Source: an uncultured virus (IMG/VR IMGVR_UViG_3300025572_000450)
Taxonomy: Duplodnaviria; Heunggongvirae; Uroviricota; Caudoviricetes
IMG/VR virus record: IMGVR_UViG_3300025572_000450
Reading direction: 5' to 3' (one strand)
Length of the DNA: 64,000 bases
The position numbers were made by a program, and so were the translations under genes. Position 1 is the stretch's first letter; the number at the start of each line of letters is the position of its first letter. The notes under the pieces were generated by a model. The model had not been told where the DNA came from, searched no databases, and saw only the letters and a program-made list of their open reading frames with translations. This document shows, piece by piece, positions 21,516 through 49,979 of this stretch.

Positions 21516-21559
21516 AAGGACTGCACCAAAGGTTTTATCCTTCAGTGCAGTCCTTTCTT
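21516..21559 (+). terminator. Hairpin terminator after the helicase
   Basis: AAGGACTGCAC / GTGCAGTCCTT followed by TCTTT. Confidence 0.7.
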
Positions 21560-21629
21560 TGCTGTCTCCGCTTGAAGAGAGCCGGTCAAAAATTACTTGT
21601 TTTCGTAAATCCCTAAGGCCAACTCCCTT

Positions 21630-31405: not shown

Positions 31406-31411
31406 TGTAGT

Positions 31412-33277
31412 ATGGCCGATCCTGATATTAAAGTTGAAGTAAGTTTTACGTCTACACCTTCAGAAGCTGATGTGTGGACTGATATTTCAGATTATGTGCA
31501 AGACGATGGAATTGTCATCCGACGTGGTAGCAATGATGAATTGGAACCCTTAGTATCGTCTTCACTTAATCTGGTCTTGGATAATCGCCTACTTCATTTT
31601 GATCCAGAAAATGAGGCTAGTCCATTTTATCCAAACGTTCGACCTATGAAACATATCCGTGTTCAAGCGCTGTATGATGGTGAATACCTGCCGCTCTTTG
31701 ATGGATATGTACAATCTTGGAACCCAATGCGCGCAGGTTTTGGTTATGCGCTCACAATGGTATCAGCTGTAGACGCCCTCGGCGCTGCGCTAGCACAAGC
31801 AAAGTTCCCAGAGCAGCTATTCATTGTGCGCAATGCCCCTTTTCAGGCTACAACCTATAACGCGCTAAACGGATCGACCGATTTACCTGGTGACAATCCA
31901 ACTGGATCGTATATGACGAATGTTCGTTTTCCCAACTCCATTGCGAGCATGACAGGAGGAACATTCAAAATAAAGATATTTGACAAGGAGACGCCAGATT
32001 TACCATATAACATTACCATTCAAGAAACAATAGACATTCTTGAGGGTACTGGCATGGTAGAGCCAAATACCATCTTTGTCAGCACGCTCTTATCTACTGG
32101 CGTGGATTTAAACAATCCACTGTTTAGTGACGCAATTCTCCACTTTGGTGGAGAGTATATTTATCGCGATATTTCGATTCAAGTCAGGCTTACAGATATA
32201 GCTATTACTCCATCTGGAGTAAATACGAATCTCAGAAAGCATATTCCCGATGCGACCGTGGTTGGTGTACTTCAACGAATTGAAGGTAGGCCGATTCAAG
32301 TACGTCTCATCACTCCACGAGGTATCTATGGATCGCTTCGTGTTGGTGTATCTGGGCTTGTGGCAAATTCTCGCGAAATACGCATGGAGTGGCATACCTT
32401 TACAAATGCCGATCCTCGGATCATCTTGATTTCGGCGGAATTTTCGCAAGTGTTTCGCGTCACAATCCAAGGTTATACCGATTCCCGAAACGCGGAAAAT
32501 AGTGCTGAAGTAAGTATCCTTAATGGAGATCTTGCATCGGATTATAGCGGGATTATGGCTCGAAGAGCTGCTCGCTGGGCTGGATGGAAGGGTAACATTG
32601 AAGCTGAACGAGGTATATCTCAGTTAGCATCTGTCAACGTTGTTGGAAAAAGCATGCTTGATGTGCTTGGCCTGATAGCGCGCAGCGAGAGCGGTAAGGT
32701 CTTTGTGGCTCGTGATGGCACTCTTACTTTCAAGAGTCGAGCTGCATCTCGCGGTGAAAGCAAGGCGGTCTTTGGTGGTAGTGGAGGCCTGCCTTTTGAG
32801 AGTGTGTCATTGACATACGACGAGCGCTATATCCGAAATAGCGTTACCGTGCAGGCTATTGAAGGGGTTCCGCAGAATATTCAAGATCAATCAAGCATCG
32901 AGCGCTATTTCATCAGAACATATAGCGAATCAGGCATGCTTATCATCACAAATCTTGAGGCCATGAGCCGTGCTCGCTATTTGTTGGGCCGCTATAAAGA
33001 GCCAACAATGCGCGTTAACGCATTGATCTTGCGACCTGATCTAGACCCAGACAATTTATGGCCCGTCTTTTTCAGTTGCGATCTTGCAGATAAAATCACT
33101 TTATTTTATCAACCCATGCCTAGCGTGACTCGCAAATTGGATCTGGTGATCCAAGGTGTTACAATTACGCTAAAAAGAGGCCAATGGCAAGCAGTGTGGA
33201 ACTGTTCTGTCGCAGAGCCAAATATTTTCATTCTGGATCATTCTCTTTTGGATGGCCCTGACATCTTGTTGTATTGA
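31412..33277 (+). CDS. Tail tip/hub protein
   Basis: WTDISDYV..IRRG..LDN; follows the tape measure. Confidence 0.75.
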   Translation: MADPDIKVEVSFTSTPSEADVWTDISDYVQDDGIVIRRGSNDELEPLVSSSLNLVLDNRLLHFDPENEASPFYPNVRPMKHIRVQALYDGEYLPLFDGYVQSWNPMRAGFGYALTMVSAVDALGAALAQAKFPEQLFIVRNAPFQATTYNALNGSTDLPGDNPTGSYMTNVRFPNSIASMTGGTFKIKIFDKETPDLPYNITIQETIDILEGTGMVEPNTIFVSTLLSTGVDLNNPLFSDAILHFGGEYIYRDISIQVRLTDIAITPSGVNTNLRKHIPDATVVGVLQRIEGRPIQVRLITPRGIYGSLRVGVSGLVANSREIRMEWHTFTNADPRIILISAEFSQVFRVTIQGYTDSRNAENSAEVSILNGDLASDYSGIMARRAARWAGWKGNIEAERGISQLASVNVVGKSMLDVLGLIARSESGKVFVARDGTLTFKSRAASRGESKAVFGGSGGLPFESVSLTYDERYIRNSVTVQAIEGVPQNIQDQSSIERYFIRTYSESGMLIITNLEAMSRARYLLGRYKEPTMRVNALILRPDLDPDNLWPVFFSCDLADKITLFYQPMPSVTRKLDLVIQGVTITLKRGQWQAVWNCSVAEPNIFILDHSLLDGPDILLY

Positions 33278-33284
33278 GGTTCTG

Positions 33285-34538
33285 ATGGCCCTATCTCCCA
33301 TTTTTGCAACTAAAGAGTTTGAATCGACGACTGCATTACCTGCAAGCGATCTCAATCAGTATGTCTCTAATTCCCTACTGTACCTGCATCGATTCCAAGG
33401 CGAGCAGGCTACAGACTGGCCGCTTTCACCAGCGGTCAATCAGCGTGTGTATCGATCAGATTTTCGCGCCGATTTTGTTTATGACGGAACGACGTGGATG
33501 CAGACAAGCGTCGGTTCGTTTGATGGAATCTACCCGAGCAGTCCAATAGTAAATCTACGTGTCTATCGTACTGATCTAGCTCAAGAGCGGGTCTGGAACG
33601 GATCAGTATGGGTAACAACTACCTCTGTTGCTAGTGGGAATGTTACTGGCGTCCTGCCAGCAGCCAATGGAGGTACAGGCGTTAACAATGGCTCCAACAC
33701 TCTTACAATCCCTGCAAGTGGCACAGCTGTTTTGCGTTCTGGCAGTGGCACAGCTGGTCGTGTTGCGTTGTGGTCGAATGCTAATGAGATTGGCAATGAT
33801 GGCAATTTGACCTATGGCAGTAATACATTAAATGCACCAAATCTAAATGTTTCGGGCAATGTTATTGCAGGCCTATTTGCTATTGGTGTCACAACGCCTG
33901 CCCGACCAGTCCACATTAGGCATGTAGGCGCTTCAATGCTATTCCAGCGACTTGACGGCGCATTGCCTGGCTTTTTCCTATCGGTCTTCTCTTTGGACAA
34001 TCTAGACACACCTACAAAGGTCTTCTATTTGGGAGGCATTGGTAATGACAGCGTTGGTTTCCGTGATCATGGCACTACAGAAGGTGGTGGTGGAACGGTT
34101 CGGCTTCGTGTAACAGGAACTGGATCGGTGCTTATTGGCCGCGATACAGGTTTAACTGGTGCAGGAGATTTAGATGTGAATGGTAATCTCCGTATCGGGA
34201 ACAACCTGACTCTGACCAGTGGCACTCTAATCGTATCAAGCGGAGGTATTTCTGCTGTAAACGGATATATCAGTGGTCAGAATTTGAGTGCTTCCAACTC
34301 GTTAGGTACGGGAGGGAACGCGTATATAGGAGGAAATCTCAGTGTGACAGGCAATATTACCGGTTCAGCCTCGGGCGGCAGCGCAGTCAGGCTATCAAAC
34401 GGAGCCGCATTTTTCGCGGGTGTTGGTTACGCCAATCGACCGAGCGTTATCGGGTCACGTGATGGAAATCCTGCGCTTACAAGTCTGCTAATTGTACTTG
34501 ACAGCTACGGCCTTATTTACAACAATACGACTGCATAG
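33285..34538 (+). CDS. Tail fibre or receptor-binding protein
   Basis: GVLPAANGGTG and Gly-rich beta repeats. Confidence 0.75.
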   Translation: MALSPIFATKEFESTTALPASDLNQYVSNSLLYLHRFQGEQATDWPLSPAVNQRVYRSDFRADFVYDGTTWMQTSVGSFDGIYPSSPIVNLRVYRTDLAQERVWNGSVWVTTTSVASGNVTGVLPAANGGTGVNNGSNTLTIPASGTAVLRSGSGTAGRVALWSNANEIGNDGNLTYGSNTLNAPNLNVSGNVIAGLFAIGVTTPARPVHIRHVGASMLFQRLDGALPGFFLSVFSLDNLDTPTKVFYLGGIGNDSVGFRDHGTTEGGGGTVRLRVTGTGSVLIGRDTGLTGAGDLDVNGNLRIGNNLTLTSGTLIVSSGGISAVNGYISGQNLSASNSLGTGGNAYIGGNLSVTGNITGSASGGSAVRLSNGAAFFAGVGYANRPSVIGSRDGNPALTSLLIVLDSYGLIYNNTTA

Positions 34539-34546
34539 GAGAAAAT

Positions 34547-34861
34547 ATGTTTTTTCAAGATTCTGAGGCCATTCAATCGATCTATCAAGCTTCTGGATTA
34601 CGCAATGCTTTGGTGTCGATATATAGTGCAGCAAAGAGTGTAGAACATCTTCTGAACCTTTATTCAGAAGGAACAGACCCTACTTTTAATGCTGTCATTG
34701 ACACCTTGTATAATGAGCAGGAAAAAGGCGAGCTGGCTGCAATGCTAACGACAATTTCCTTGTTAATCGAGGATTGGGAGAAGAATCATCGAGCAGCTAT
34801 CAATTTAGAGCCTATTGAAGACCCAGAGGGACAAGGCGACTTAGAAGGTCAGGAGGAATAA
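34547..34861 (+). CDS. Hypothetical protein (possible fibre chaperone)
   Basis: AGGAG RBS; follows the fibre gene. Confidence 0.55.
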   Translation: MFFQDSEAIQSIYQASGLRNALVSIYSAAKSVEHLLNLYSEGTDPTFNAVIDTLYNEQEKGELAAMLTTISLLIEDWEKNHRAAINLEPIEDPEGQGDLEGQEE

Positions 34862-34866
34862 CTATA

Positions 34867-35064
34867 GTGTTAACCGCAGCATTAGACCAAAAGCTTAAAG
34901 AATATCAAGCTGAACGAGATCAAGTCTATTTGCGCGTTTGTGCAAGTGATGAGTATCAGCGATTGGTCTCGTTAGATGGTTCCATCGCAGCATTGACTGC
35001 TTTGAAAAACGAGGCTAACGAGCAGCCTGAGCAGGGAGATGAGCAGCTCTTGAACGAAAGCTAG
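34867..35064 (+). CDS. Small coiled-coil protein
   Basis: GGAGG RBS; last gene of the tail operon. Confidence 0.5.
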   Translation: MLTAALDQKLKEYQAERDQVYLRVCASDEYQRLVSLDGSIAALTALKNEANEQPEQGDEQLLNES

Positions 35065-35077
35065 TTTTTTTAAGTCG

Positions 35078-35131
35078 TATATGCCAGATATGTCATTATT
35101 TCTTGACACAATGACATATCTGGCATATAAT
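35078..35131 (+). promoter_or_regulatory. Consensus promoter embedded in a perfect 20-bp inverted repeat
   Basis: TTGACA 35103-08, 17-bp spacer, TATAAT 35126-31; arms 35078-97 and 35110-29. Confidence 0.9.
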
Positions 35132-35138
35132 TTGATCA

Positions 35139-35375
35139 ATGGATACGCACAGTACGGATTGTACGGATTTTATGGACACACCAGATCAAGTAGAAACAGC
35201 CGAACTGAGTACCGAGCAGGTCGCTGATCAGCTTGGGGTTTCGTCAGCAACAATACGACGCTATGCACGTTGCGGCTTGCTCGATTATCAAACTAAGTGG
35301 ATTGGTCTAAAAAAAGAATACCGCTTCACATTAGAAGCGGTACGACGGTTTCGCGATCAAGCTCAAAATAACTAG
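35139..35375 (+). CDS. MerR/excisionase-type HTH protein
   Basis: LSTEQVADQLGVSSATIRRYARCG..YRF. Confidence 0.8.
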   Translation: MDTHSTDCTDFMDTPDQVETAELSTEQVADQLGVSSATIRRYARCGLLDYQTKWIGLKKEYRFTLEAVRRFRDQAQNN

Positions 35376-35492
35376 CGGTGACGGCACTCTGTCAAAACGA
35401 CGCCACCGCTAGCAGGTTGAAGAATGCACGTTTTGCGTGCTTAGCTTCGTGTGCCATTATACCAGATATGGCACACCACTTGAAGGTGAAAA

Positions 35493-36506
35493 ATGTTTCA
35501 GGCTACAGAACAGCAATCGAAACGCCCTCGATTACTACCGCCGATAGAACCCACGCAATTTCCATTCAAAAATGGTAAGACCATCTGGAATGGTCTTTAT
35601 GGCCACCTCGATCTTAAAGAACGCCCAACCTTTTGCACCCTCTATATATCGATCGATCCTCTAGCGATACAGATAGATGACGTTAATCGTGCAGAGAATG
35701 CCAATATCGACGTGCTAAATGACAAACGGATTAATGAAGCTGTTATTCAGCCTCTGCTAGCGCTTTTGTCTGACATCTACGAAGTTCCTCCAGCTCTGTG
35801 TTTAACGGAACGGGGAGAAATGTGGGTTATGACCAAAGCTGATGCGATTGAAACTATCCATCGAGGCTATGCACCTGGCTCCAAGATAGAAATTCCAAAG
35901 GTTTTCGAATGGAGTTGGATGTTTTGTAGCAAATTTTCATCAGTTGAGTTTGGCCAAAATCCTGTTGTCAAGAGCGTTGGAATGGTTTTGTTTGGTGTTT
36001 TCTTGCTCCTTTTGGTGGGCGTATTGCGCATTATGGCCATTGCTACTAGCGCTGTCGCTGAACCAATTGAGAAGCTGTTGCTTAATTTGGAACCGAACGG
36101 GGACTATTACTACGTTGCAGCTCTTATTGCATTGGCTTGGCAGGCTATCAATTTGTTGTTTCTCTTCCCACCTGCCCGAAAAGCAGTAATTGTTATCGTA
36201 GTAATTAATTGCCTTGTTAGCGTTGTCTACGCTTATTTTGACGGTGCTTCATGGGCCATGATAGCTGCTCATCCTATTATCGTGATTGGTCTCTACACTC
36301 TACCCGTTTTCGTCATCCTTTATCTCGTTGGCAATGTGATCTTCTTGTCTCCAATTTTGACATGGCTGCCGAATCAAGCAGGGAAAATAGCAGCTTTGAG
36401 TATCAACCGCTACAAACTTGAGCGCCACCTTGCGCAGTACGACTATCAACAAAAACTTAATCAAGACATACGGGTTTTGAAGCGGGAGACTCGCTACTTA
36501 CCATAA
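35493..36506 (+). CDS. Multi-pass membrane protein of the transfer-like operon
   Basis: Four to five hydrophobic segments in the C-terminal half. Confidence 0.7.
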   Translation: MFQATEQQSKRPRLLPPIEPTQFPFKNGKTIWNGLYGHLDLKERPTFCTLYISIDPLAIQIDDVNRAENANIDVLNDKRINEAVIQPLLALLSDIYEVPPALCLTERGEMWVMTKADAIETIHRGYAPGSKIEIPKVFEWSWMFCSKFSSVEFGQNPVVKSVGMVLFGVFLLLLVGVLRIMAIATSAVAEPIEKLLLNLEPNGDYYYVAALIALAWQAINLLFLFPPARKAVIVIVVINCLVSVVYAYFDGASWAMIAAHPIIVIGLYTLPVFVILYLVGNVIFLSPILTWLPNQAGKIAALSINRYKLERHLAQYDYQQKLNQDIRVLKRETRYLP

Positions 36507-36518
36507 AGGAATAAAGCA

Positions 36519-38222
36519 ATGACGGCGATTATCCGTTATGAACAACCGAGACTCACCTTGTTAGATTGGTTCTTGAAGGCGTTTCAGTCAAAGCCCAAGT
36601 GTTTAATCGAGCCAATCGCCGAGCAGGACATCCCACAGGTTTGGGACTTGCTCAAGCAAATCGATTTTGATCACTTACAGGGAGATACCGAAAGTGTTGC
36701 ATTACGAAAATTGCAACAAGTTGCTCGCAATTTGGAGAAGCGCGGTGCGGTTGTACGAGGCGTCTATTTCAAGATCGATCGATCTTTTCCCATAGGCTTA
36801 ATTAAGATTCACAACCAGCACGAGGAACGCATTACACGCTATCTTTCATCTCTCAAGCTTGCACAAGGTTACGCCGTTGGGAGCTGGATTTGGTTAGCAC
36901 TTGCTTTTGCTCATCAAGTAACGAGGCCCATGCTCCCAGCTCCTGCACTGCGCAAGATGTTGCCAACAACGAACTCGCTGCGGTCAGTCAGGATTGATCT
37001 GCCAACGCCTGCTATTGAGACTTCCTTTGAGGCTCCCTTTGAGGCTCCTTTGGAAGTCTCTATCGAAGAACCTTTTGAGGCATCTATCGAGGCTCAACAG
37101 GATCTTACACCTGTGAAACCATCTCTTTCATACCCAAAGCCTTATATGACAGGCCAAGGCGCGATGAGAGAGCTTCATGTGGGTATTGGTACTGTAGATG
37201 GAGAATGGATTTATGCCCCTCTAGCTCATGGTGCTGTCATTAATCCAACTGGAGGTGGGAAAACAAACCTCTTCGCTTTGATGATGGCGCAGGTGCGTTA
37301 TCTCATGGCTCAAGGCGAACCGATTGAAATGTTCTATGCGACCTGTAAGTATGTGCCAATTGATCCTATCGACAAATTAGATCAACGGCCATTGATAGAT
37401 GGTCTTGATCGCAAAGCTGTAGCCATCGATATGAATGACATTTTGAGCTGGTTGGCTCGTGTATCTGCTTATGCGATGGCTCGATACAATCGAATGCGAA
37501 GTGAGCCAGGTTGGTTCCCAGAGAAAAAGGCTGTTGTTTTCTTAGACGAACTGAAGGGCTTTTTCGAGCTGCTAGGGGATGAGAAGGCAGGAAATACGAC
37601 CTACAAGAAGATGGCTTCTCGTTATCTGAAGATCCTACTTATTATGGCACGCGAGGCAAATATGCATGTCATATTTGCATCACAAGATTGCTACTGTGGG
37701 TCGGTAACACTCACACGGGCAGAAATGAAAAACCTTGGACTGGTGCTGATCCATCCATCAAGCGATGATCGTTCGCTAGAAAACGCTTTGGGGAAAGAAG
37801 CTCTCACATTGCCCAAAGGTGGATTACATGACTGGTATCTCTTTTCTAAGGCTCGGTCTGGGATTGCTCTGGTATCAGTGCCACGAGTCACCCAAGGATT
37901 ATTGCAAACATATGGACTCACAGGAACAAACATCGGCGTGTTTTTAAGCGAGACGACGCTAGGCTTTGTAGCTCATGTTGAAACTCCCCAAACGAACGAC
38001 TTGCCAGTTGAGGAGCTTGTAACGAGCGTGGCACAAAGATTAGGGTTTTCCCTACCTTTGGCACTGGTGGAGATTGAGAACAAACAAGTTCAGAGCCTCA
38101 TCAAGTTGGCTGCTAAGCGAGGCATGAAGGTGCAGCCTATTGCGAGATTACTTTTCGATGCCGGATCAAACGGACGTTTCCAGACTGAGCGGATCAAGCC
38201 GCTTGTTACTGAGAAATCTTAA
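36519..38222 (+). CDS. FtsK/SpoIIIE/TraB-like P-loop ATPase
   Basis: NPTGGGKT, VVFLDE, AREANMHVIFASQ; HTH-like C-terminus. Confidence 0.8.
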   Translation: MTAIIRYEQPRLTLLDWFLKAFQSKPKCLIEPIAEQDIPQVWDLLKQIDFDHLQGDTESVALRKLQQVARNLEKRGAVVRGVYFKIDRSFPIGLIKIHNQHEERITRYLSSLKLAQGYAVGSWIWLALAFAHQVTRPMLPAPALRKMLPTTNSLRSVRIDLPTPAIETSFEAPFEAPLEVSIEEPFEASIEAQQDLTPVKPSLSYPKPYMTGQGAMRELHVGIGTVDGEWIYAPLAHGAVINPTGGGKTNLFALMMAQVRYLMAQGEPIEMFYATCKYVPIDPIDKLDQRPLIDGLDRKAVAIDMNDILSWLARVSAYAMARYNRMRSEPGWFPEKKAVVFLDELKGFFELLGDEKAGNTTYKKMASRYLKILLIMAREANMHVIFASQDCYCGSVTLTRAEMKNLGLVLIHPSSDDRSLENALGKEALTLPKGGLHDWYLFSKARSGIALVSVPRVTQGLLQTYGLTGTNIGVFLSETTLGFVAHVETPQTNDLPVEELVTSVAQRLGFSLPLALVEIENKQVQSLIKLAAKRGMKVQPIARLLFDAGSNGRFQTERIKPLVTEKS

Positions 38223-38224
38223 CA

Positions 38225-38405
38225 CTGGAAAGGGAAACAAGCATCGGTATTGAAATCGAGTAATTTTCCAAGGCTTTAGGAAGCAGCGGAAAAGGTTTTT
38301 GACACTTTCCGGCAAGATTGAGGACTTTCCACTTTCCAGAAAGTGTCAAAAATTATACGCGAAAGCATATATAGATTTATATAAACCTATATAGATTTAT
38401 ATACA
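38225..38405. repeat. CTTTCC/GGAAAG repeats, 14-bp inverted repeat, and duplicated TATATAGATTTATATA
   Basis: ACTTTCC three times in 38304-38337; IR 38296-309/38339-352; AT direct repeat near 38368-38403. Confidence 0.65.
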
Positions 38406-38501
38406 GGAACGTATATGACTTACAACATGACACGGGTCTTGTATACATTGCGACCAACAGTAGGACGTAAATTGCTGATCGAATTAGAGGGAGCTGGACA
38501 A

Positions 38502-39647
38502 ATGACAATCCAAGAAGTCGAGAATGCTGCTACGCAGTTGGTAGAGGGTGATAAGAAGATCATTCGGATCGGCGGCGACTTTGGCAATGGTGCGACGAAG
38601 CTGGTCGCAAACAAAGAAGATCTGCAACGCTTGGGCATTCGTGCTCAGGCTCAGGTCACAATTCCAAGCGCAATTGGTGCGCGGCACGCTGGCTCTCAGG
38701 AGTTATACAAGCGACATCGTGTTGCTTATGGCGATGTTGCTGGACTGAAAGAGCAATCGAAGCTGCGAGACTTCTACATCCTCCAAGAGGGAATGATTGA
38801 GTATTTGGTTGGCAGTGCGGCTCAGGCATACGCGCTCGACGCGAACACTGCTCGCGGCGCTCAGTCTCGCTATTTTGATGGCTGGACGCGACGCTTGATG
38901 CTTGTAGCTCTGCACGCGATGTTTCCTGTTCTGCCTGATGACGTTGAAATCCATCTTATGACTGGCGTGCCAGCATCATTCTGGTCAAGCGAGATGGTTG
39001 AGAAGATCCGAACGAGCCTAGGCGGTCGTCATGCGGTTACGATCAACAATGAGACACGCACCTTCAACGTGGCTTTTGTGGATGTTGCTGTTGAGGGAGA
39101 GAGCGCTTTGCGCACGCTCAGCTTAGCTGATCAAGTGGTGTTTTGCCTTGATGTTGGCGCATACACGGCGGCCTATGGGGTATTCAAGATTACAGAGAAT
39201 GAAATCTTGAACTCACCAGCTCATGCGGGAGTCGAATATTTGGGCATTCAGGAAATGCTTGATGTTTTGGATAATGCGCTTGTATCCTCTAAGTTTCGCC
39301 CTCTTACGATCTTAGAACGCCAAGAACTGTTAGTCGCACTTCGCGACAAGCAAGCCTATTACATCATCGTCAATAATCAGCGTGTGCGTGTTGATGATGC
39401 GGCCCAGAAGGTTTTTAGCCAGCTGCTTGCCGATCTGATGCGTATCATCGGTAAGAAGATTGATCTGCGCAAGGTGCAGAAGGCTGTACTCGTTGGCGGC
39501 GGCGCATATTTCCTGATCGATGCCCTTAATCAGATCGCGCCGATCGCATTCGAGAGCTTTGATCAATCGGAATTCTTGAACGCTCTTGCGTACTTGAGCA
39601 TGCTTGGCGGTGATGTAAAGCGAGCTGCTAAAAAGCGAAAGAAGTAA
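38502..39647 (+). CDS. ParM/StbA-family actin-like ATPase
   Basis: GGDFGNGATK, LMTGVP, VEGESA, LDVGAYT, LVGGGA; the ORF is open from 38415. Confidence 0.9.
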   Translation: MTIQEVENAATQLVEGDKKIIRIGGDFGNGATKLVANKEDLQRLGIRAQAQVTIPSAIGARHAGSQELYKRHRVAYGDVAGLKEQSKLRDFYILQEGMIEYLVGSAAQAYALDANTARGAQSRYFDGWTRRLMLVALHAMFPVLPDDVEIHLMTGVPASFWSSEMVEKIRTSLGGRHAVTINNETRTFNVAFVDVAVEGESALRTLSLADQVVFCLDVGAYTAAYGVFKITENEILNSPAHAGVEYLGIQEMLDVLDNALVSSKFRPLTILERQELLVALRDKQAYYIIVNNQRVRVDDAAQKVFSQLLADLMRIIGKKIDLRKVQKAVLVGGGAYFLIDALNQIAPIAFESFDQSEFLNALAYLSMLGGDVKRAAKKRKK

Positions 39648-39650
39648 GCG

Positions 39651-39914
39651 ATGGCGCAAAAGAAGCCTGTTGTTTTATGCTCGGTTCCACCTGCCTTATT
39701 TGAAGCCCTAAAGCGAGAGGCAGAGCAAGAAGGAAAAAGCATCCCTGCTACGTTGGTTGAATGGGCACGAAATTGGCACAAACTACAGCAACAACAAGCT
39801 CCTGTAAATCCTCCTGTATCTCCTGTAAATCCTCCTGTATCTCCTGCTTTATTTACTGTAGAACCACTTGAAAGTGATCAAGATGACTTTGGCTTCTCAT
39901 TTGAAAGGCGATAG
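39651..39914 (+). CDS. Ribbon-helix-helix adaptor (ParR-like)
   Basis: VVLCSVPPALFEALKREAEQEGKSIPATLVEW; directly after ParM. Confidence 0.7.
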   Translation: MAQKKPVVLCSVPPALFEALKREAEQEGKSIPATLVEWARNWHKLQQQQAPVNPPVSPVNPPVSPALFTVEPLESDQDDFGFSFERR

Positions 39915-39916
39915 CC

Positions 39917-41194
39917 ATGGAAGTCAGACGACATCGCGAAGGGGAGAGCGGCCATACTCTCCCCTCGCCTTCCAAAGCCATTTCTATTTCAAGAGCACGC
40001 GGTTCTGGTTCTTTGCAACCCTCGCAACCCTCGCAACCGTTGTTGCCACAGCCTGAACCTGTTCGGGTGGTATATGAGATCCGGCATGTTCCTGCTGCTT
40101 ATGAGCAAGAAGAGCTGCATGCTACTTCACGCTGCTATCATAAACGCTTTCCTGCTTTTACAACCTTGCTCGTTGTGATACTTTTACTTGGCGCTGCTGT
40201 TGGCTCAGGAGCAGTAAAGATCCAGATAAGCAATACCTCACTAAGCAATGCCATAGCCAACTCATTTTCATTTCAGCAACCAGAAAAACCGATACTAAAC
40301 AACTATGCCGATTTAGGAATAGTGCAGAGCGCTCCTAGCATCGGGCCAGATAAGATCAATCAGATCTTGCAATCCTATGGCTCTCCTGCCGCTGGAACGG
40401 GTCAAGTCTGGTATGACTTGGGTCTTAAATACAATATCGATCCGGCCTATGCGATCGCCTTCTTTATTCACGAAAGTTCGGCGGGTACTAATCCGGCGTG
40501 GGCTGGCTGGAAAGATTACAGCAACCGTGTCAGTACCCATAATGTTGGCAACATCATTTGTGCTGGTTATTCGACCTGTTTTGGTCGTTTTCGTGACTAT
40601 CCCAACTGGGCCGCAGGCATAGAGGATTGGTATCGCCTTATTGCAGTGGAATATATCGAGGGGCGAGGTGCTGTAACGGTGGCCCAGATCATTCCGATCT
40701 ATGCGCCTTCCTTTGAAAACGATGTTCAAGCCTATGTGAACGCTGTTGAGCGCTTAGTCGATAGCTGGCGCAAGGAGAGCCAAAGCAGCTCGCAAGGCAG
40801 CACTAAAGCTGAATTGTGGCCGAATGCCACCGTTTGCGCTGGTACGCCGATTCATGATGGAGCATACGATTGGTGTGCTCCTCAAGGCACTCCAGTTCAT
40901 GCGCCGTGGGCTGGCACGTTTTTAGGGCAGGGATTTTATGCAGATGAGAGGCACTTCGGAGCCTATATGATGTTTTTGCGTGATGATGGGCTTGAAGTCT
41001 ACGTTGGCCATCTCGATCAAGAGACAGTTAACCCTTTGGGGTGGCAGCGAGGAGATCGTATCGAAGCTGGCCAGCAGCTTGGCCAGCTTGGGCCATTTCC
41101 CTTTACCGAGCCGCATGCCCACTTACAATTTTCTCGAAATGGGGATGTGATTTGGAATAGCGACTTATGGTGGAAAGAATACGGAGGGAATTAA
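39917..41194 (+). CDS. Membrane-anchored peptidoglycan hydrolase (glucosaminidase-like plus M23 peptidase)
   Basis: TM helix; IDPAYAIAFFIHES; HDGAYD..GTPVHAP..GHL..HAH. Confidence 0.85.
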   Translation: MEVRRHREGESGHTLPSPSKAISISRARGSGSLQPSQPSQPLLPQPEPVRVVYEIRHVPAAYEQEELHATSRCYHKRFPAFTTLLVVILLLGAAVGSGAVKIQISNTSLSNAIANSFSFQQPEKPILNNYADLGIVQSAPSIGPDKINQILQSYGSPAAGTGQVWYDLGLKYNIDPAYAIAFFIHESSAGTNPAWAGWKDYSNRVSTHNVGNIICAGYSTCFGRFRDYPNWAAGIEDWYRLIAVEYIEGRGAVTVAQIIPIYAPSFENDVQAYVNAVERLVDSWRKESQSSSQGSTKAELWPNATVCAGTPIHDGAYDWCAPQGTPVHAPWAGTFLGQGFYADERHFGAYMMFLRDDGLEVYVGHLDQETVNPLGWQRGDRIEAGQQLGQLGPFPFTEPHAHLQFSRNGDVIWNSDLWWKEYGGN

Positions 41195-41212
41195 GAGGTA
41201 TGCAAACAAACA

Positions 41213-41250
41213 AAAACCTCTACCGAATTCGGTAGAGGTTGTTTTTTATT
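41213..41250. terminator. Bidirectional terminator
   Basis: AACCTCTACCG / CGGTAGAGGTT with T-run, between convergent genes. Confidence 0.8.
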
Positions 41251-41272
41251 TAACCTGCCAATTTGCAGGCTG

Positions 41273-41479
41273 CTAGGCAGTAACTGCGTCTACCGAGGCT
41301 GCAATAACCATTCCAGGCTCAAAAGGGTTTTCCTCGGTTGCAATTTTTTGCAAAATGTCATGGATGATGTTGATCTGCTCCAAGCGCTCTTCAGTTGTTA
41401 GTTTATTCCATTCCTCGCTGTCGATACCGATGCGGATAGCTAAAGGTACAATCATAGTGCTTCTCCTGTTGTCAAGCAT
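41273..41479 (-). CDS. Hypothetical protein
   Basis: Short ORF in a run of minus-strand genes. Confidence 0.45.
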   Translation of the reverse strand: MLDNRRSTMIVPLAIRIGIDSEEWNKLTTEERLEQINIIHDILQKIATEENPFEPGMVIAASVDAVTA

Positions 41480-41661
41480 GCTTGACAGAACGATTCATCT
41501 TCTACCTGTTGGACATCACGAGCGATAAGGTCTTCTATGCTCTCAAAAACATGGCCACAAACTGGACATGTCTCGCCGAGCTGCATTAGCAGCTGTAACC
41601 GTACAATTGGATCGAGCGGTTTATTGTCTTCTTCTATGTTATTCATAGCTTCCTCAAGCAT
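41452..41661 (-). CDS. Small CxxC zinc-ribbon protein
   Basis: CPVC ... CQAC. Confidence 0.55.
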   Translation of the reverse strand: MLEEAMNNIEEDNKPLDPIVRLQLLMQLGETCPVCGHVFESIEDLIARDVQQVEDESFCQACLTTGEAL

Positions 41662-41810
41662 GTTCTTTGCGAATGCGTTCTATAGCCATATTAAGATTTT
41701 GCATTAGTTCAGTGCTGGATGTTTTCGGTAGCACTATTTTTGCGACGCACATGCAGTTTGATGGTACGTTCCTGAAGCTCAAAAGTCAAACGCACTATAG
41801 CTTTTGCTTT

Positions 41811-42245
41811 TCATAGCAGCTCTACCTGCACATATTCAATTGTTTCAACGCCCAAGATTTCTAAGAGAGCAATGCCGATTATATCGGCATGGCATGCATC
41901 GGCTCGATGATTGGTATGCTTGTAGGGCGGCCTTAGTTGTTTTGCGCACCAACAGCAGAGAGTGATATGCTTTTGCTCTGCTAACAAGCCAATTAAGCGC
42001 GCAAATTCCATTGATACTGGGTTAACAGAAAGCATCTGTCGTTGAAAATGGTCGTTGTATTTCTTGATAGCTTGATCTAATGACTGATCAGGCCGAAAAG
42101 GGTTGCCTAGAGGAGATCCTGTGCGAATGCTTGCCAATAGATCAGGATCAATATAGGGTGATTTAAATGCTGGCATTGCGCGGCCAACATAGACTGGTGT
42201 TATGAGTTTTGGTGTTGTAACATGAGCTATAGATACTTGGAACAT
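41811..42245 (-). CDS. DUF4326-like protein
   Basis: VYVGR, GSPLGNPF, LCCWCA, CHADII. Confidence 0.8.
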   Translation of the reverse strand: MFQVSIAHVTTPKLITPVYVGRAMPAFKSPYIDPDLLASIRTGSPLGNPFRPDQSLDQAIKKYNDHFQRQMLSVNPVSMEFARLIGLLAEQKHITLCCWCAKQLRPPYKHTNHRADACHADIIGIALLEILGVETIEYVQVELL

Positions 42246-42275
42246 TTCAGCACTTTTGAATCAAATAAGAGCCGA

Positions 42276-43820
42276 TTAAAGGACTATCGGCTCTCGATAG
42301 GTATTCCAAAACGGGCGAAATGTTGGGCTATATGCGAGGTCAAGCCCCATCAGCCACCCCATAGACAGCATAGAGGTCGTCGCCTCAACCAAGGGAGCGT
42401 AAGCTCCGGTTGGAGTGATGGCCTCTATGCTATTTGTCTCCTCTTTTCCTCTTGATAACCAGAACTTACTGATAATCCGCCGAATAAGCAGCCGTTGCAT
42501 TTCTGGATCAGCCTGCTTGAGTGCATCACCAATTGTGGTTAGCGTATTCACCGCCGAGACCAAGTCGAGCTGGCTAACAGTTTTTGGCCGAGCTGTTTTG
42601 AGCGCTTGCAGGCTTTCAAGCTGTCGACGGTAGGTCGCCTCGTCTATCCCTCCCAATGAAAACGCCAATGACAAGCGTCGCTTTTGTTCGTCGATCTGCT
42701 CGGGGCTAATCACCTTTACTTCTTGAGTCGCACCAATCATACCTTCGGCTATAGTAAGAATACGATCGCGCCAGTCCGTTGGAATAGCGAGTTGTTGCAA
42801 GATCGATATGGCTTGATCCTCAACAACTTGGGCGCTTACAAAGGGTGCGTCGCAGGTTCGCCGCGATCGACCAGAGCAGACATAGTAGATGCGACGCTTG
42901 CGATTGCCGTCGCCTGCGCTGGTATGCCTCCACATGCGTTCGCCGCACTTGGCACACCAGACCAGCTCGGTAAGTAATCCGCCCGTTTCAGGTAAACCTA
43001 CGCTAAAGCGCGCCTTTTTATGGGTGCGGTGTTCGCGGATCGATTGGGCCAGCTCAAAGGTCTCTTTGCTAACCAAGGCCGGGTGTTTTCCAGGGTATTC
43101 TTGGTCGTTGATGCTAACCATGCCAATATAGGCTTTGTTGCGCAAAATATAGCGTATGTTCTCGCGGCCAAACAGTCCGCGCTCTCCGGTCTTCCAATCG
43201 AGCGTGCGCCAACCACGCTGATTCAATTCATCTGCAAGCGAGGTATAGGAGTGCGAGCCAGAGGTATAGAGCGAAAAGATCAGCTGTACCGCTGGAGCAT
43301 CATTCGACGGCCGCAGTGTCGAGCCATCGCGTTCATAGCCGTAGGGCACCGGCCCAACCCAACCGCCCTGCATCGCCTTCTCTTGAAGGCCTTTTTTTGT
43401 TTCGGTCCCTAAGTTATCGCTGTAATACTGGGCGAAACTGGCCAGCATTGCAAGTGATACCTTACCCATGGGCGTTCGGAAATCGATCTGCTCGCTTACC
43501 GAGAGCACCCCTACACCGATCGCCTCCATATCTTCGACCAGCTTGAGGAGCAGCGCGGTATTGCGCGCTAGCCGATCGATCTTATGGGCGATGATACAGC
43601 TAAAGCGTTTAAGGTGAGCGTCGCGAATCATCTCATTAAAGGATGGTCGATCGGCTCGCCTACCGCTATAGTCATCGTCGATGTAGATACGATAGACCTC
43701 AAAGCCAAGGATTTCGGCGTAGGAGCGACATTGCCGCTCCTGCGCTTCGGTGCTGTACTCGCTCTGCTCTTCTGTGGAGCGGCGAATATAGATCGCCGCT
43801 CTTCGTGTAGACATAGCCAT
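42276..43820 (-). CDS. Large serine recombinase (integrase)
   Basis: YIRRSTEEQ, DDYSG..RP, IDRLAR, PYGY, Zn ribbon CAKC..YYVC..C, coiled coil. Confidence 0.95.
   Translation of the reverse strand: MAMSTRRAAIYIRRSTEEQSEYSTEAQERQCRSYAEILGFEVYRIYIDDDYSGRRADRPSFNEMIRDAHLKRFSCIIAHKIDRLARNTALLLKLVEDMEAIGVGVLSVSEQIDFRTPMGKVSLAMLASFAQYYSDNLGTETKKGLQEKAMQGGWVGPVPYGYERDGSTLRPSNDAPAVQLIFSLYTSGSHSYTSLADELNQRGWRTLDWKTGERGLFGRENIRYILRNKAYIGMVSINDQEYPGKHPALVSKETFELAQSIREHRTHKKARFSVGLPETGGLLTELVWCAKCGERMWRHTSAGDGNRKRRIYYVCSGRSRRTCDAPFVSAQVVEDQAISILQQLAIPTDWRDRILTIAEGMIGATQEVKVISPEQIDEQKRRLSLAFSLGGIDEATYRRQLESLQALKTARPKTVSQLDLVSAVNTLTTIGDALKQADPEMQRLLIRRIISKFWLSRGKEETNSIEAITPTGAYAPLVEATTSMLSMGWLMGLDLAYSPTFRPFWNTYREPIVL
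42313..42361 (+). other. att-like site containing the 3' end of a tRNA-His-like sequence
   Basis: GGTCAAGCCCCATCAGCCACCCCA (42338-61) lies within the integrase 3' end; no tRNA 5' half upstream. Confidence 0.6.
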
Positions 43821-43822
43821 GC

Positions 43823-43978
43823 TTAACCTCGTGCTGTGTGCTGTGGCGTATCTTGGCTAGATTGTACAGCACGTTGAGCGATCGCCAAGGCGATCGATGC
43901 CAGAGTTTGTAACAGCGCCTCGATCTGCTGCTGCTCTTTCTCTTCAGTATCACTGGGTAGGATTATGATCTCGGCCAT
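43823..43978 (-). CDS. 51-aa ORF directly upstream of the integrase (possible directionality factor)
   Basis: MAEIIILPSDTEEKEQQQIEALLQTL...; fills the gap between two genes. Confidence 0.45.
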   Translation of the reverse strand: MAEIIILPSDTEEKEQQQIEALLQTLASIALAIAQRAVQSSQDTPQHTARG

Positions 43979-43980
43979 GG

Positions 43981-44298
43981 TTACACCTTTAAGACTCTCA
44001 GCTCAATGTTGGGGTAGCGCTTGCGAAAGAACCACGCCTTGATACGGAATACCGGAGTCTCAACGCCCTTGATATCTTCCACAATGATTCGTTCACCGAT
44101 AGAGTAGCGAAAGTCACCGATGTAGACGGGCGCGCCTTTGCCATCGTCGAGCGGGTAGCGCGGTTGACAGACCAGATGCGCGATCGCGCCCTGCTTCTCC
44201 AGCTTCTTGAGCTGAATATACCTTCGTGCCTCGGCCTTGCTTGCGAAGCGGCGGCCATCCACGTGAACTGGCTGGTTGCCGTACTTGGAATAGCTCAC
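43981..44298 (-). CDS. DUF1064-like PD-(D/E)xK nuclease
   Basis: SKYGN..DGRRFASKAEARRY..YIGDF..VEDIKG. Confidence 0.85.
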   Translation of the reverse strand: MSYSKYGNQPVHVDGRRFASKAEARRYIQLKKLEKQGAIAHLVCQPRYPLDDGKGAPVYIGDFRYSIGERIIVEDIKGVETPVFRIKAWFFRKRYPNIELRVLKV

Positions 44299-44657
44299 GA
44301 GTATTCTTCCTCCAGCTCAAAATCCTCTTCATCTGTGTTGTACAGATCTTCGTCGAGCGCCCGCTCCAGCGGGGTGGCCTCGGGCTGCTTCTTCTCTCGC
44401 AGAACGGTGTCCTCGATCTTGGTATTGAACTTGACCTCGATGCCAGGCGCGCGACGGTAGAGCTTTTGCGCAATAGTGGATTTTGCCCGCTGCAGATCCT
44501 CGGTGCTGAGAAAGTAGAGCTTGAACTTGATCTCGCTACCCGCTTCAACTTCAAGAATATCGGCTAAGCGCTCGAGAAAGTCGCGACGGTCTGCATCGCT
44601 GCCAAGCTTTGCGGTGATGGTCAATTCGGCCTTAGTGTTTTGCACATCAGCTTTCAC
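44295..44657 (-). CDS. Hypothetical protein
   Basis: Coupled ORF with acidic tail. Confidence 0.55.
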   Translation of the reverse strand: MKADVQNTKAELTITAKLGSDADRRDFLERLADILEVEAGSEIKFKLYFLSTEDLQRAKSTIAQKLYRRAPGIEVKFNTKIEDTVLREKKQPEATPLERALDEDLYNTDEEDFELEEEYS

Positions 44658-44671
44658 TGGTATCTCTCTTC

Positions 44672-44938
44672 CTATGCTGCTGTTCGGCGAATCCTGGGCC
44701 GACGTCGCGAATGCGTCGGCTGCGGCATGGGTACGACCTCAAGGCCCAAGTTGTTGATGCGAGCGATCTCCCGGCGGCGCCGCTCCCAGGCGTGAGCCAG
44801 CTGCTCGCGCAGGCTTGCCGCTTGCTCGCGGTTTATTCCTCGATCCGGCCAAGAATGATATAGCTCACGTAGTCGCCGCTCGAGTCGTTGCACTTGCTCT
44901 AGTGCGGGTTGCGGTGGTGAGTGAGTTCGGAAGCGCAT
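44672..44938 (-). CDS. Hypothetical basic protein
   Basis: Start overlaps the HNH stop. Confidence 0.45.
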   Translation of the reverse strand: MRFRTHSPPQPALEQVQRLERRLRELYHSWPDRGINREQAASLREQLAHAWERRRREIARINNLGLEVVPMPQPTHSRRRPRIRRTAA

Positions 44939-45246
44939 TACAAACCTCTCTGAGATTTGCGAGCCTTGCGAGTCTGGGCTGCTTTTTTGGCTCGCATTGG
45001 TGCGTCGAGTCTGTTGTGACAGCGCTGGCAAAGCGCTTGAAGATTCTCGGGTCTGCAATCCATAGGATCAGGATTTTGAATATGTGCGATCGTCAAGACA
45101 ATTCGTGCATTCTTGCCTGTTTTGTCGTTGTAGCGAGTGGCATAGTTGGCGATACCACAACGTTCACAGTGATGCTTGGCGCGCTCAAGGATCTGGGCGC
45201 GAATCTGTTTCCAGTTGGGCGGGTACAGCTTGTAATCGATTGGCAC
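44938..45246 (-). CDS. HNH endonuclease
   Basis: CERC..LTIAH..NLQALCQRCHN. Confidence 0.85.
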   Translation of the reverse strand: MPIDYKLYPPNWKQIRAQILERAKHHCERCGIANYATRYNDKTGKNARIVLTIAHIQNPDPMDCRPENLQALCQRCHNRLDAPMRAKKAAQTRKARKSQRGL

Positions 45247-45258
45247 TTGAGCCCTCGC

Positions 45259-46029
45259 TCACCTACAAGGTTTAATCATCGGCATCAGGGCGAACATATA
45301 CCCTTCGTCATCCACAGACCGGAATATCACGACGTCGCGCGGCGAGATACACTCGATCGCCACTGAGCCCTCGATATGATCAAGTGCGTCTCGTAGATAT
45401 TTGCCGTCCAAGACGACGGTAGTTGGTGTTTTACCTTCAACATCGCACGCGATATGACCCACTTCTTGGTCATATCGAACCTTTTCAAAGTTGGACTTTG
45501 TGTATGCTTGGGACGTCAACACTGTCAGTTGTCCAGCTTCCAGCGCCAATTTGATTACAGACAACGAACCCTTGCTAAACGGTCGAATAATCCGTTCCAG
45601 CTCGTGTGCGTTAACGACACAGCGCGAGTTGTAGCAGTTCGGGAGAGCGCTTTCATAGTTGACGTATTCTTTGTCGATCAGCTGTATTGTCTGATCGACG
45701 CTTCCGCTCTGGAACTGCGCTTGATAGTCATCGCTGTAGATTTTCACGGCCTGCCTGCCGCGGCGCAGTGCCAGCCACAGTTGGTCTAGCTCTCGTGCCG
45801 GAACAAGCAGATCTCGAGAGCTAGCGACCGGCTCGGCCAGTGTGACAATCTTTCGAGCCAACCGAATCTTGTCGGTAGCAACGAACGTTGCCTGTTCACC
45901 CTTGAGACTGATGAGCACGCCTCTGAAGACCGGATGACAATCGTCCTGATCTGCTGCAAAGACGACCTGGTCAATCGCCTTCTTCAGACTATCGATGTTT
46001 ACTGACATTAAATATTCCATCATCTGCAC
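45259..46029 (-). CDS. DNA polymerase III beta-clamp-like protein, two domains only
   Basis: QVVFAA..VFRGVL..VATDKIRLA..LIDKEYVNYE..YLRDAL..LMPM. Confidence 0.8.
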   Translation of the reverse strand: MQMMEYLMSVNIDSLKKAIDQVVFAADQDDCHPVFRGVLISLKGEQATFVATDKIRLARKIVTLAEPVASSRDLLVPARELDQLWLALRRGRQAVKIYSDDYQAQFQSGSVDQTIQLIDKEYVNYESALPNCYNSRCVVNAHELERIIRPFSKGSLSVIKLALEAGQLTVLTSQAYTKSNFEKVRYDQEVGHIACDVEGKTPTTVVLDGKYLRDALDHIEGSVAIECISPRDVVIFRSVDDEGYMFALMPMIKPCR

Positions 46030-46031
46030 AC

Positions 46032-47736: not shown

Positions 47737-47797
47737 AGCTGATCTCTTGAAGGCGAGAGGTGGAACGCGTTCCACCTCTCTCGGATTGTCCAGTGGG

Positions 47798-48109
47798 CTA
47801 GGCGCGCTCTTTACAGTAGCTGCCATCGCCCATTTTGTGACTGCAATACCACGTACCCGGGCGCTTGGTGCTCTCCTTCATAGGCCCGTGATACGGACAT
47901 ATGGGCGCTTCTCGGGCCCTCTCTGTGCGAGCTTGGCGCGCAGCTGCAGGGGCCACCGCACCGATCTCGCGCAGGCTTTTGAGCGCATTCCTCAGGCGCT
48001 TGGCGCTGCCAACAATCTGAACATCAATCGGGAAATCGTCCAGAATGATGTGAATGGTGAATCTCGGCGGCGGTAGATTCTGTTCGTCTTGCGTGTATTC
48101 GTCGCTCAT
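47798..48109 (-). CDS. Small protein with C-terminal Zn ribbon
   Basis: CPYHG..WYC..YC. Confidence 0.65.
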   Translation of the reverse strand: MSDEYTQDEQNLPPPRFTIHIILDDFPIDVQIVGSAKRLRNALKSLREIGAVAPAAARQARTERAREAPICPYHGPMKESTKRPGTWYCSHKMGDGSYCKERA

Positions 48110-48802: not shown

Positions 48803-48858
48803 GTTCGAGTTTTTCCTTTGGAGTGCTTATGTGGTGGCACCACATAAGCACTCCGCTT

Positions 48859-49914: not shown

Positions 49915-49979
49915 CGCGCCTATAACAAATTCGTACACAGTTTTTGCTTTCTCTACTACACTAGCTAAAGAAACGGGCA

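Follow-up and report, generated by a model that had tools for sequence, protein, structure and literature searches.

The window analysed here, the whole 64,000-nucleotide stretch of an uncultured virus record, carries the virion genes of one tailed phage (phage 1), a six-gene module behind its tail genes, and a recombinase of a second phage (phage 2) (Table 1). The module starts 75 bp past the last tail-module gene, and its six ORFs, all on the plus strand, encode in order an HTH protein, a membrane protein, an ATPase, an actin-like protein (ALP), a probable adaptor and a wall hydrolase, each at the place and in the order given by a sequence-only reading of this DNA.

Table 1. Features of phage 1, the six-gene module and the right-hand junction, with positions in the window
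Feature	Position	Strand	Details
Divergent promoter region of phage 1	851..911	+	Inverted pair of an 8-bp core, 851-858 and 884-891
Packaging, lysis, head and tail genes of phage 1	950..35064	+	Terminase 3592-4938; amidase endolysin 4950-6320
Further virion genes of phage 1		+	SPP1-type portal; capsid 11118-12029; tape measure 26573-31405
Operator-like inverted repeat, 25-bp arms	35078..35131	+	Overlaps sigma-70 promoter
Sigma-70 promoter, 12/12 consensus	35103-35131	+	Beneath operator-like repeat
HTH_17 protein, 78 aa, excisionase/MerR-like	35139..35375	+	E 1e-7, above cut-off
Third, imperfect operator-arm copy	35458..35473	+	Upstream of membrane gene
Membrane protein, 337 aa	35493..36506	+	150-aa soluble N-terminus, then four hydrophobic segments; no family
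FtsK-clade ATPase, 567 aa	36519..38222	+	Walker A aa 242-249; Walker B D343-E344; R378 and Q389 conserved
GGAAA-core repeat cluster, 7 copies (3 forward, 4 reverse)	38225..38352	.	Includes 21-bp-arm inverted repeat 38296-38352
Two 20-bp AT-rich direct repeats	38363..38402	.	Just upstream of ALP gene
ParM/StbA-type ALP	38415..39647	+	ALP_N 46.8 bits, cut-off 26.3
Probable adaptor, 87 aa	39651..39914	+	3 bp downstream of ALP; RHH_5 E 0.09; low-complexity acidic tail
Glucosaminidase-M23 hydrolase, TM-anchored	39917..41194	+	One TM, aa 76-105
Bidirectional intrinsic terminator	41204..41251	.	Closes operon
Three small convergent genes, right end of phage 1	41273..42245	-	Last is DUF4326
Large serine recombinase of phage 2	42276..43820	-	Sole recombinase within window
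tRNA-His 3' core	42340..42361	+	Serves as attR for phage 1; phage 2 is inserted here

The HTH_17 protein is likely a regulator or Xis. The 4-TM membrane protein is a candidate anchor or pore; it has one relative (55%), an Atlas search with it returned nothing usable, and its predicted complex with the ATPase scored 0.00, a value that counts neither way. The core of the module operator is identical to the 8-bp core in the divergent promoter region of phage 1, which suggests that control of the module is tied to that phage.

The ATPase had been described as FtsK/TraB-like, and of this the FtsK fold stands, supported by Atlas, Foldseek and VIA, whereas the likeness to TraB is one of fold only and does not extend to detectable sequence kinship. 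It has no Pfam, PHROG or NCBIfam match; TcpA and FtsK head its structural matches (TcpA Z 21.5, rmsd 3.2 over 238 residues), and the catalytic motifs are conserved across 21 family rows, with Asn in place of the first Walker-A glycine in the ATPase itself. When set against TraB, TcpA and FtsK by profile and phylogeny, as had been proposed, the family comes out separate. The 21 rows form their own clade (100/100) and three TraB rows another (96/90), in a tree with long branches and unsettled deep forks, from which two rows were lost at Walker-A trimming. The nearest reference to the family profile is the chromosomal FtsK of E. coli (E 3e-6), followed by TcpA (E 2e-4), pIJ101 Tra (E 0.33) and three TraB sequences (E 6 to 60). 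As judged from sequence and tree, the protein has the FtsK/TcpA fold and appears to belong to a family of its own, apart from TraB. The C-terminal winged helix of TraB reads clt repeats; the ATPase has three C-terminal helices (aa 521-564; pLDDT 57 in a separate model), HTH_24 matches one of the 21 family members (E 0.001), and a fold search with the C-terminal 74 aa, made with a low-confidence model, gave no match at E 0.001. An N-terminal hydrophobic segment is present in 18 of 21 relatives. The present ATPase has no such segment (its hydropathy peaks at 1.21) and so no built-in membrane anchor; its closest relative lacks the segment too, yet both stand behind a 4-TM gene.

No tblastn match to the ATPase was found among 72,556 plasmids, and a search of viral contigs, genome contigs, GenBank phages and PLSDB gave no close-relative loci; one 2.9-kb metagenome contig was found. 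The relatives of the membrane gene, ATPase and ALP (55, 71 and 85%) all come from a single 12,094-bp contig. More distant relatives of the ATPase sit in small Chloroflexia elements (nine loci, fetched DNA), three with a tyrosine integrase and four with a primase or Rep, and Replic_Relax adjoins the ATPase at L035 and L050. This last association, together with the place of TcpA at the top of the fold matches, where it ties for first, would suit an ATPase that acts as a TcpA-like coupling protein in ordinary ssDNA conjugation, for which the left arm of phage 1 would supply a relaxase, perhaps Replic_Relax or an integrase-like protein, and the mating channel would come in cis or from a helper element; the closest genomic relative of the ALP (L042) likewise has VirB4-like and TraG/VirD4-like neighbors. 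We regard this as unlikely: the tree does not place the family with TcpA, and the 70 window ORFs hold no relaxase, T4SS or tyrosine-integrase family in Pfam searches, which cover the window and not the left arm outside it. The earlier statement that the window shows no relaxase, T4SS or phage-1 integrase is thus borne out, the serine recombinase being that of phage 2.

The repeats reported between the ATPase and ALP genes are present (38225-38402) and fall into two sets. The GGAAA cluster is a candidate loading site for the pump; seven cores in 128 bp are reached by 8 of 3992 scanned segments, the other seven of which are one tandem array, for a motif that was picked after inspection. The cores point both ways, and the best 8-mer of the cluster occurs twice, versus five copies behind pSVH1 traB. 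The AT-rich direct repeats form a plausible centromere/promoter. Of the ParM and RHH pair that had been named, the first is solid and the second weak: the ALP exceeds the ALP_N cut-off, matches PHROG 691 and ParM/StbA proteins of plasmids and has four actin motifs, and these features mark it as a genuine actin-like protein, whereas a role of the 87-aa protein as its adaptor is plausible from its position and weak RHH match. An ALP gene lies beside an FtsK-type ATPase gene in 3 of 18 ALP regions, and also at L047 and L050, and the ALP-linked ATPases of other loci fall outside the query clade.

The hydrolase matches M23 (E 1e-9) and, below cut-off, glucosaminidase (E 3e-4). Over residues 136-287 it shares 87.5% identity with a glucosaminidase encoded on a Chloroflexales chromosome, and this domain looks like a recent acquisition from the host. 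Because phage 1 has a separate endolysin, the hydrolase is not needed for lysis. We considered it as an orthologue of TcpG and rejected this, TcpG being glucosaminidase plus NlpC/P60, not M23, and showing no BLASTP likeness. The hydrolase is unmatched in any of the other ALP-FtsK regions, which, with the host origin of its glucosaminidase domain, would fit captured cargo that serves cell separation or helps lysis. Such a role belongs to a reading in which the module works inside one cell only, where ALP and adaptor would position or segregate the excised circle and the ATPase would clear it from closing septa as FtsK and SpoIIIE do. The best sequence match of the ATPase among the references, chromosomal FtsK, agrees with this, as do two described systems: AlpAC of the integrated prophage CGP3, needed for efficient replication (PMC4446434), and srpMRC, which stabilizes excised ICEs (PMC4489591). 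Nevertheless, segregation does not call for a dedicated 4-TM protein, pump and membrane-anchored wall hydrolase together in one operon, and the related ATPases reside in small integrative elements; we hold action within one cell to be possible, if somewhat less likely than transfer between cells.

The module and phage 1 are one unit in other assemblies as well. Tail genes and module share a contig in runs from three of four studies: a 19,844-bp contig of run X4 spans the join with 0 differences over 30001-40474, and runs X7 and X12 carry tail and module on one record, whereas X13 is fragmented. On the X4, X7 and X12 contigs we rejected an assembly chimera at the join. Nor is there support for the module as an element of its own lying behind phage 1, because there is one att core and no second, no integrase lies within 35078-42340, GC is similar (0.471 in the module versus 0.482 in the tail genes) and the operator core is held in common.

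The right-hand junction indicates that phage 1, a temperate tailed phage, has very probably integrated into the tRNA-His 3' end of a Chloroflexales host. The tRNA-His core occurs once within the window, and contigs of X4, X7 and X13 (three runs, three studies), all without phage 2, depart from the window at 42361. Beyond that point all three match, X4 and X7 in 30 of 30 letters, the DNA past the attR of another prophage at tRNA-His; this prophage lies in G002, a Chloroflexales genome that has no phage-1 DNA except enzyme paralogues. At its start this downstream sequence has a hairpin and U-run, and over 4.1 kb it contains no ORF large enough for an integrase; in most of the relatives listed a hairpin follows tRNA-His, and the junction sequence is alike. 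Phage 2 is a tandem insertion at the attR core of phage 1. We rejected its serine recombinase as the integrase of phage 1, since it accompanies phage 2 in G002, and its depth in X4, X7 and X12 is 0 to 0.7, versus 8 to 20 for the module. The replication arm of phage 1 is left of the window, and its integrase presumably lies on that left arm too, also outside. A search of other sequences did not find this arm, G001 being an 11-kb inner fragment, and the module genes are absent from the fetched DNA of 44 terminase relatives (39-59%). In X7, a 32-bp unitig common to element and host gene has a depth of 28.2, the element 14.4 and 11.6; in X12, the host homologue has 12.5 versus 8 to 9 for the element. 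These values fit about one copy per chromosome, but depth is not a copy number and we leave it out of the evidence.

The sequence-only reading had proposed a phage-plasmid, and phage 1 does carry virion genes, as a phage-plasmid would. Maintenance outside the chromosome by ParMRC, with no integrase of its own, would also agree with the unseen attL and phage-1 integrase, with a locus (L050) at which Rep, an ALP and an FtsK-type ATPase lie next to genes that are tail-like by eye, and with the pairing of ParM and RHH adaptor, typical of Bacillus plasmid prophages (PMC8026635). Because an attR-like tRNA-His core links the element to host DNA, what the examined samples contain is an integrated prophage rather than a phage-plasmid; this attR-type junction in three runs of three studies, the hairpin behind tRNA-His in most relatives listed, as at the junction, and the 351,762-bp length of the source contig make the extrachromosomal alternative very improbable. 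A chromosomal element with its integrase outside the window, which that reading had itself named as contrary to its proposal, is largely what the junction indicates. ParMRC-type loci are no proof of plasmid life, since they are known on integrated elements (AlpAC, PMC4446434; srpMRC, PMC4489591), and ParM beside tail genes, a common shortcut, does not equal a phage-plasmid.

Among the possible uses of the operon, we consider single-ATPase spread from cell to cell the likeliest, and tentatively propose that the module, after excision, positions the phage circle and pumps dsDNA through cross-walls into the next cell. The right end of phage 1 carries a single operon behind an operator-covered promoter; once the circle is excised, the adaptor would bind the direct repeats (38363-38402), and filaments of the ALP would hold the circle and carry it to the membrane. 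There the ATPase, as a hexamer that pumps dsDNA and is held in place by the 4-TM protein, would load onto the GGAAA cluster just downstream of the ATPase gene, the membrane-anchored hydrolase would open the cross-wall or cell contact, and the circle would pass into the neighboring cell along the filament and re-integrate. This mode of action would resemble that of TraB and Spd, outside that family. In favor of the pump count the TcpA/FtsK fold with its conserved catalytic motifs, the 4-TM gene ahead of ATPases that lack an anchor, the small elements that carry distant relatives, the recurring ALP-ATPase pairing, the density of the repeat cluster and a hydrolase that lysis does not require. Several observations count against transfer: on pCW3, TcpA, the top fold match, has a relaxase and a T4SS as partners; a Bacillus plasmid joins ParM and FtsK to a replication-relaxation gene, and L035 and L050 have Replic_Relax next to the ATPase; the cluster repeats run in both orientations, Asn stands in for the first Walker-A glycine, the profile gives no sequence link to TraB and the ALP-linked ATPases of other loci lie outside the query clade; and AlpAC of CGP3 serves replication, not spread (PMC4446434).

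A close parallel to the proposed transfer is with the TraB/clt/Spd systems of Streptomyces plasmids (pSVH1, pSG5, pIJ101) and AICEs (PMC4447253, PMC3429521), which likewise combine a single FtsK-fold ATPase, an adjoining 4-TM protein, repeats right behind the ATPase gene and an operator-covered promoter, with no relaxase or T4SS in the window here; integration at a tRNA is as in AICEs. Unlike TraB, the present ATPase has no TM and no detectable sequence likeness; the regulator is HTH_17, not GntR-type TraR/KorA; the repeats are degenerate and in both orientations, whereas theirs are direct 8-bp clt repeats, recognized by the TraB C-terminus (PMC4447253); and a ParM pair and a wall hydrolase are present, in a virion-encoding Chloroflexales phage. 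In the integrated prophage CGP3 of Corynebacterium glutamicum (PMC4446434), AlpA and AlpC also comprise an adaptor and actin-like protein with upstream repeats, but the motor precedes the adaptor here (ParM-ParR order), the reverse of CGP3, and here the ALP shares its operon region with a pump, membrane protein and hydrolase. The srpMRC locus of SXT/R391 ICEs (PMC4489591) is similarly a ParMRC-type partition system on a chromosomal, excising element, yet those ICEs use a relaxase and T4SS and carry no virion genes. Clostridium perfringens pCW3 offers both the top fold match (TcpA) and a glucosaminidase hydrolase (TcpG) in the same locus, but the relaxase TcpM and channel genes TcpC/D/E/F/H found there are absent here between tail genes and attR. 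Bacillus cereus-group plasmid prophages share the ParM and RHH-adaptor pair (PMC8026635), and plasmid pl36 has ParM, a nearby FtsK-type gene and Replic_Relax, its ATPase being unrelated by sequence to the query family (E 41); these are extrachromosomal, whereas phage 1 is joined to tRNA-His DNA.

Single-ATPase dsDNA transfer has been described for mycelial actinomycetes (PMC3429521). It is conceivable, and we put this forward with more reserve than the transfer itself, that a phage of filamentous Chloroflexales has two routes of spread, virions and a virion-free dsDNA circle moved by a soluble FtsK-type motor with a 4-TM anchor, an actin-like filament and a host-derived hydrolase, and that TraB-like transfer evolved in parallel within a phage outside actinomycetes. 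A literature search, with most subscription journals outside its reach, found no paper tying Chloroflexi prophages to TraB/FtsK in filaments or Chloroflexota integrative elements to FtsK dsDNA conjugation. If such a parallel device is used, a prophage could spread through an entire filament with no need of lysis, receptors or free virions. With six genes, the operon is small enough to test. The host occurs in compost, manure, sludge and bioreactor runs.

Six plus-strand ORFs (35139-41194) directly follow the last tail-module gene of phage 1, the tailed phage of the left part of the window, with that gene ending at 35064, and form an operon that is real and part of this phage. The genes that a sequence-only reading had placed in this post-tail region are all confirmed, each in position, and its statement that the window lacks relaxase, type IV secretion system (T4SS) and phage-1 integrase genes agrees with Pfam scans of 70 window ORFs, in which no relaxase, T4SS or tyrosine-integrase family was found. 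That the ATPase is a coupling protein working with a putative relaxase encoded beyond the window is unlikely. The 8-bp core of the inverted repeat around the operon promoter occurs six times in the window versus 1.45 expected, a count reached in one of 100 shuffles for a motif picked after looking; four of the six copies make up two inverted pairs, one at the operon promoter and the other at a phage-1 promoter (851-911).

Features of the operon that follows the phage-1 tail genes
Feature	Position	Strand	Observation
Sigma-70 promoter	35103-35131		12/12 match; inside an inverted repeat with 25-bp arms
HTH_17 protein	first ORF	+	domain match
337-aa protein		+	four hydrophobic segments; no family matched
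567-aa ATPase	36519-38222 (third ORF)	+	
Actin-like protein (ALP)		+	ALP_N, 46.8 bits (cut-off 26.3)
87-aa protein		+	weak RHH match (E 0.09)
Hydrolase		+	one TM segment; weak glucosaminidase match; M23 domain
Two-way terminator	41204-41251		closes the operon

The 567-aa ATPase finds no match in Pfam, PHROG or NCBIfam; the Atlas assigns it to FtsK/SpoIIIE clusters at 0.94, and the top structural matches of its AlphaFold model (mean pLDDT 69.6, core mostly >85) are TcpA and FtsK (Foldseek E 7e-10; Z 21.5, tied). Twenty-four relatives are present among 1.84 billion representatives, and the Walker A lysine, Walker B glutamate and Q389 are kept in the 20 that were aligned with the query. In a motor-core tree of 44 rows, in which the deep forks are open and from which two rows dropped out at trimming, the query and its relatives (21 rows) group into one clade with support of 100/100, separate from three TraB proteins, pIJ101 Tra, TcpA/B and E. 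coli FtsK. Scored with the family profile, FtsK reaches 3e-6, TcpA 2e-4 and TraB 6-60. No TM segment is present in the query; 18 of 21 relatives have one. By sequence, the ATPase is an FtsK-clade protein with a family of its own and not TraB; of the earlier description as FtsK/TraB-like, the second half holds at the level of fold only. Because relatives of the membrane gene, the ATPase and the ALP are each assigned to a 12,094-bp contig, taken as the same contig from the identical figure, this trio is probably conserved.

Directly behind the ATPase gene lie seven GGAAA cores within 128 bp, a count reached by 8 of 3992 windows, the other seven of which represent one tandem array; the repeats of the pSVH1 clt region are tighter. 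Short degenerate repeats, with a different core in each, also lie behind the ATPase genes of relatives L001 (1350-1440), L036 and L038.

Profile matches to the ATPase occur in 8 of 401 Chloroflexia genomes at E 1e-8 and in 10 of 167 genomes of the order at 1e-6, all of them distant. Among nine loci from the Chloroflexia search, selected ORFs of which were scanned, a tyrosine integrase is nearby in three, a primase or Rep in four and Replic_Relax in one. Small Chloroflexia elements (L032-L036) combine a Cro-like HTH, a TM-anchored FtsK/HerA ATPase, a primase, Xis and a tyrosine integrase in a layout like that of actinomycete integrative elements (AICEs), outside actinomycetes. Among 401 genomes of the phylum, 17 contain ALP_N, at 21 places in total; 18 regions were fetched, leaving out the three weakest, and an FtsK-type ATPase adjoins the ALP in 3/18, with most of the remainder looking chromosomal. 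Two relatives of the window ALP were found at the level of the order: L047, whose neighbours are a membrane gene and an FtsK-type ATPase, and L042, next to T4SS-like genes. Since the ALP-linked ATPases of other loci fall outside the query's clade in the tree, the two genes have been either reshuffled or paired repeatedly. Locus L050 (G263:C997, 4876-19999), where Rep, ALP, an ATPase with a TM segment, ParB and Replic_Relax lie beside genes that are tail-like by eye (no Pfam match), is a stronger phage-plasmid candidate than the window. Many genomes of the phylum carry a conserved ALP and adaptor pair that is apparently chromosomal, with housekeeping-like genes around it (L076-L085, L088 and L090).

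Nine of 10 window proteins looked up in the protein collection are present there, each with a longest contig of 351,762 bp. Sixteen sequencing runs, from bioreactor, compost, manure and sludge, contain the module at ≥0.97 of its words. Four runs from four studies (X4, X7, X12 and X13), all but X4 flagged as possible sources, were compared over window positions 30001-50000. One contig spans tail genes and module in X4, X7 and X12, while X13 is fragmented; run contigs end near 40445-40474, within a stretch common to a host gene. Past 42361, depth drops from 8-20 to <1 in X4, X7 and X12, where phage 2, the second phage running rightwards from 42340, is absent, and at this position contigs of X4, X7 and X13 pass into different sequence. 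The sequence at 42340-42361 corresponds to the tRNA-His 3' end; it occurs once in the window, in which no tRNA genes were found. The recombinase gene at 42276-43820 has a close relative (L002) in G002, a Chloroflexales MAG in which a near copy of phage 2 sits integrated at tRNA-His. The DNA directly behind the attR of that prophage is identical to the X4 and X7 contig ends in 30/30 letters, opens with a hairpin plus U-run, and lacks an ORF of integrase size over the 4.1 kb up to the contig end; by eye, a hairpin also lies 3' of most intact tRNA-His genes displayed from relatives. Within the limits of a MAG, G002 shows no phage-1 DNA beyond enzyme paralogues. On the plain reading of these sequences, 42340-42361 would be the attR of phage 1, with phage 2 a tandem insertion there. 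Most probably, phage 1 is integrated as a prophage, with a circular stage expected after excision; a search for its left part (integrase and replication genes) and attL found nothing. That it is a true phage-plasmid, as first proposed, is very improbable, given the attR-type junction to tRNA-His downstream DNA found instead in X4, X7 and X13. The phage-2 serine recombinase, which uses the tRNA 3' end, has 496 aa in G002, its gene ending inside tRNA-His, and 514 aa here, 18 aa longer by reading into phage-1 DNA. Filamentous growth is a trait of the Chloroflexales as a group.

Residues 136-287 of the hydrolase share 87.5% identity with a G002 glucosaminidase located among housekeeping genes; at the level of sequence comparison, this domain is shown to be host-derived. 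The host gene is followed by a separate M23 gene, to which the M23 part of the window hydrolase bears no clear likeness. Phage 1 encodes a separate amidase endolysin. In TcpG of pCW3 the glucosaminidase is joined to NlpC/P60, in contrast to M23 here, so that TcpG is no more than an analogue.

Cell-to-cell DNA transfer is, tentatively, the likeliest single use of the operon. The operon would be derepressed together with excision, the putative adaptor (the 87-aa protein) and ALP filament would hold and place the excised circle, and the motor, tethered via the 4-TM protein and loading behind its own gene, would drive dsDNA across the wall where the hydrolase has opened it. Work on Streptomyces transfer describes clt as having direct 8-bp repeats, traR-traB as a Kil-Kor pair and SpdB2 as a pore-forming protein with four TM segments, homologues of which occur on some actinophages (PMC4447253); AICEs, found in actinobacteria, are described as having one FtsK-like Tra (PMC3429521). 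Somewhat less probable, yet a serious contender, is that the operon serves only positioning and segregation within one cell. Other studies report a role of AlpAC of the integrated Corynebacterium prophage CGP3 in replication at the membrane (PMC4446434), stabilization of excised ICEs by srpMRC (PMC4489591), and ParM with an RHH protein in Bacillus plasmid prophages (PMC8026635). No Chloroflexota precedent for such a module was found in the literature searched, which includes few subscription journals. What is particular to phage 1 is that, in an integrated phage, one operon carries a pump whose anchor is a separate protein, together with a ParM pair and a host-captured hydrolase.

Elsewhere in phage 1, an AT-rich stretch separating the capsid gene from the head-tail genes (13140-13560) contains 11/20 of the window's GTTACAA copies, a putative origin-like or protein-binding array. 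At 1-215, 44-bp and 12-bp tandem repeats lie at the end of an ORF that the window edge truncates; a binding array at the gene end, iterons and an assembly slip are possible readings. A low-GC insertion (14394-21958) carries Eco57I-type methylase and helicase genes, and the right end of this insertion is joined to the neck and tail genes in an 11-kb virus record (G001) as well. In the G002 relative of phage 2, too, the tail genes are followed at the element's end by two membrane-protein genes that match no family, here without an ATPase (L029, 4565-6557); this relative has an adenine methylase-like gene at the position of the phage-2 gene for a DNA polymerase III beta-clamp homologue (45259-46029).
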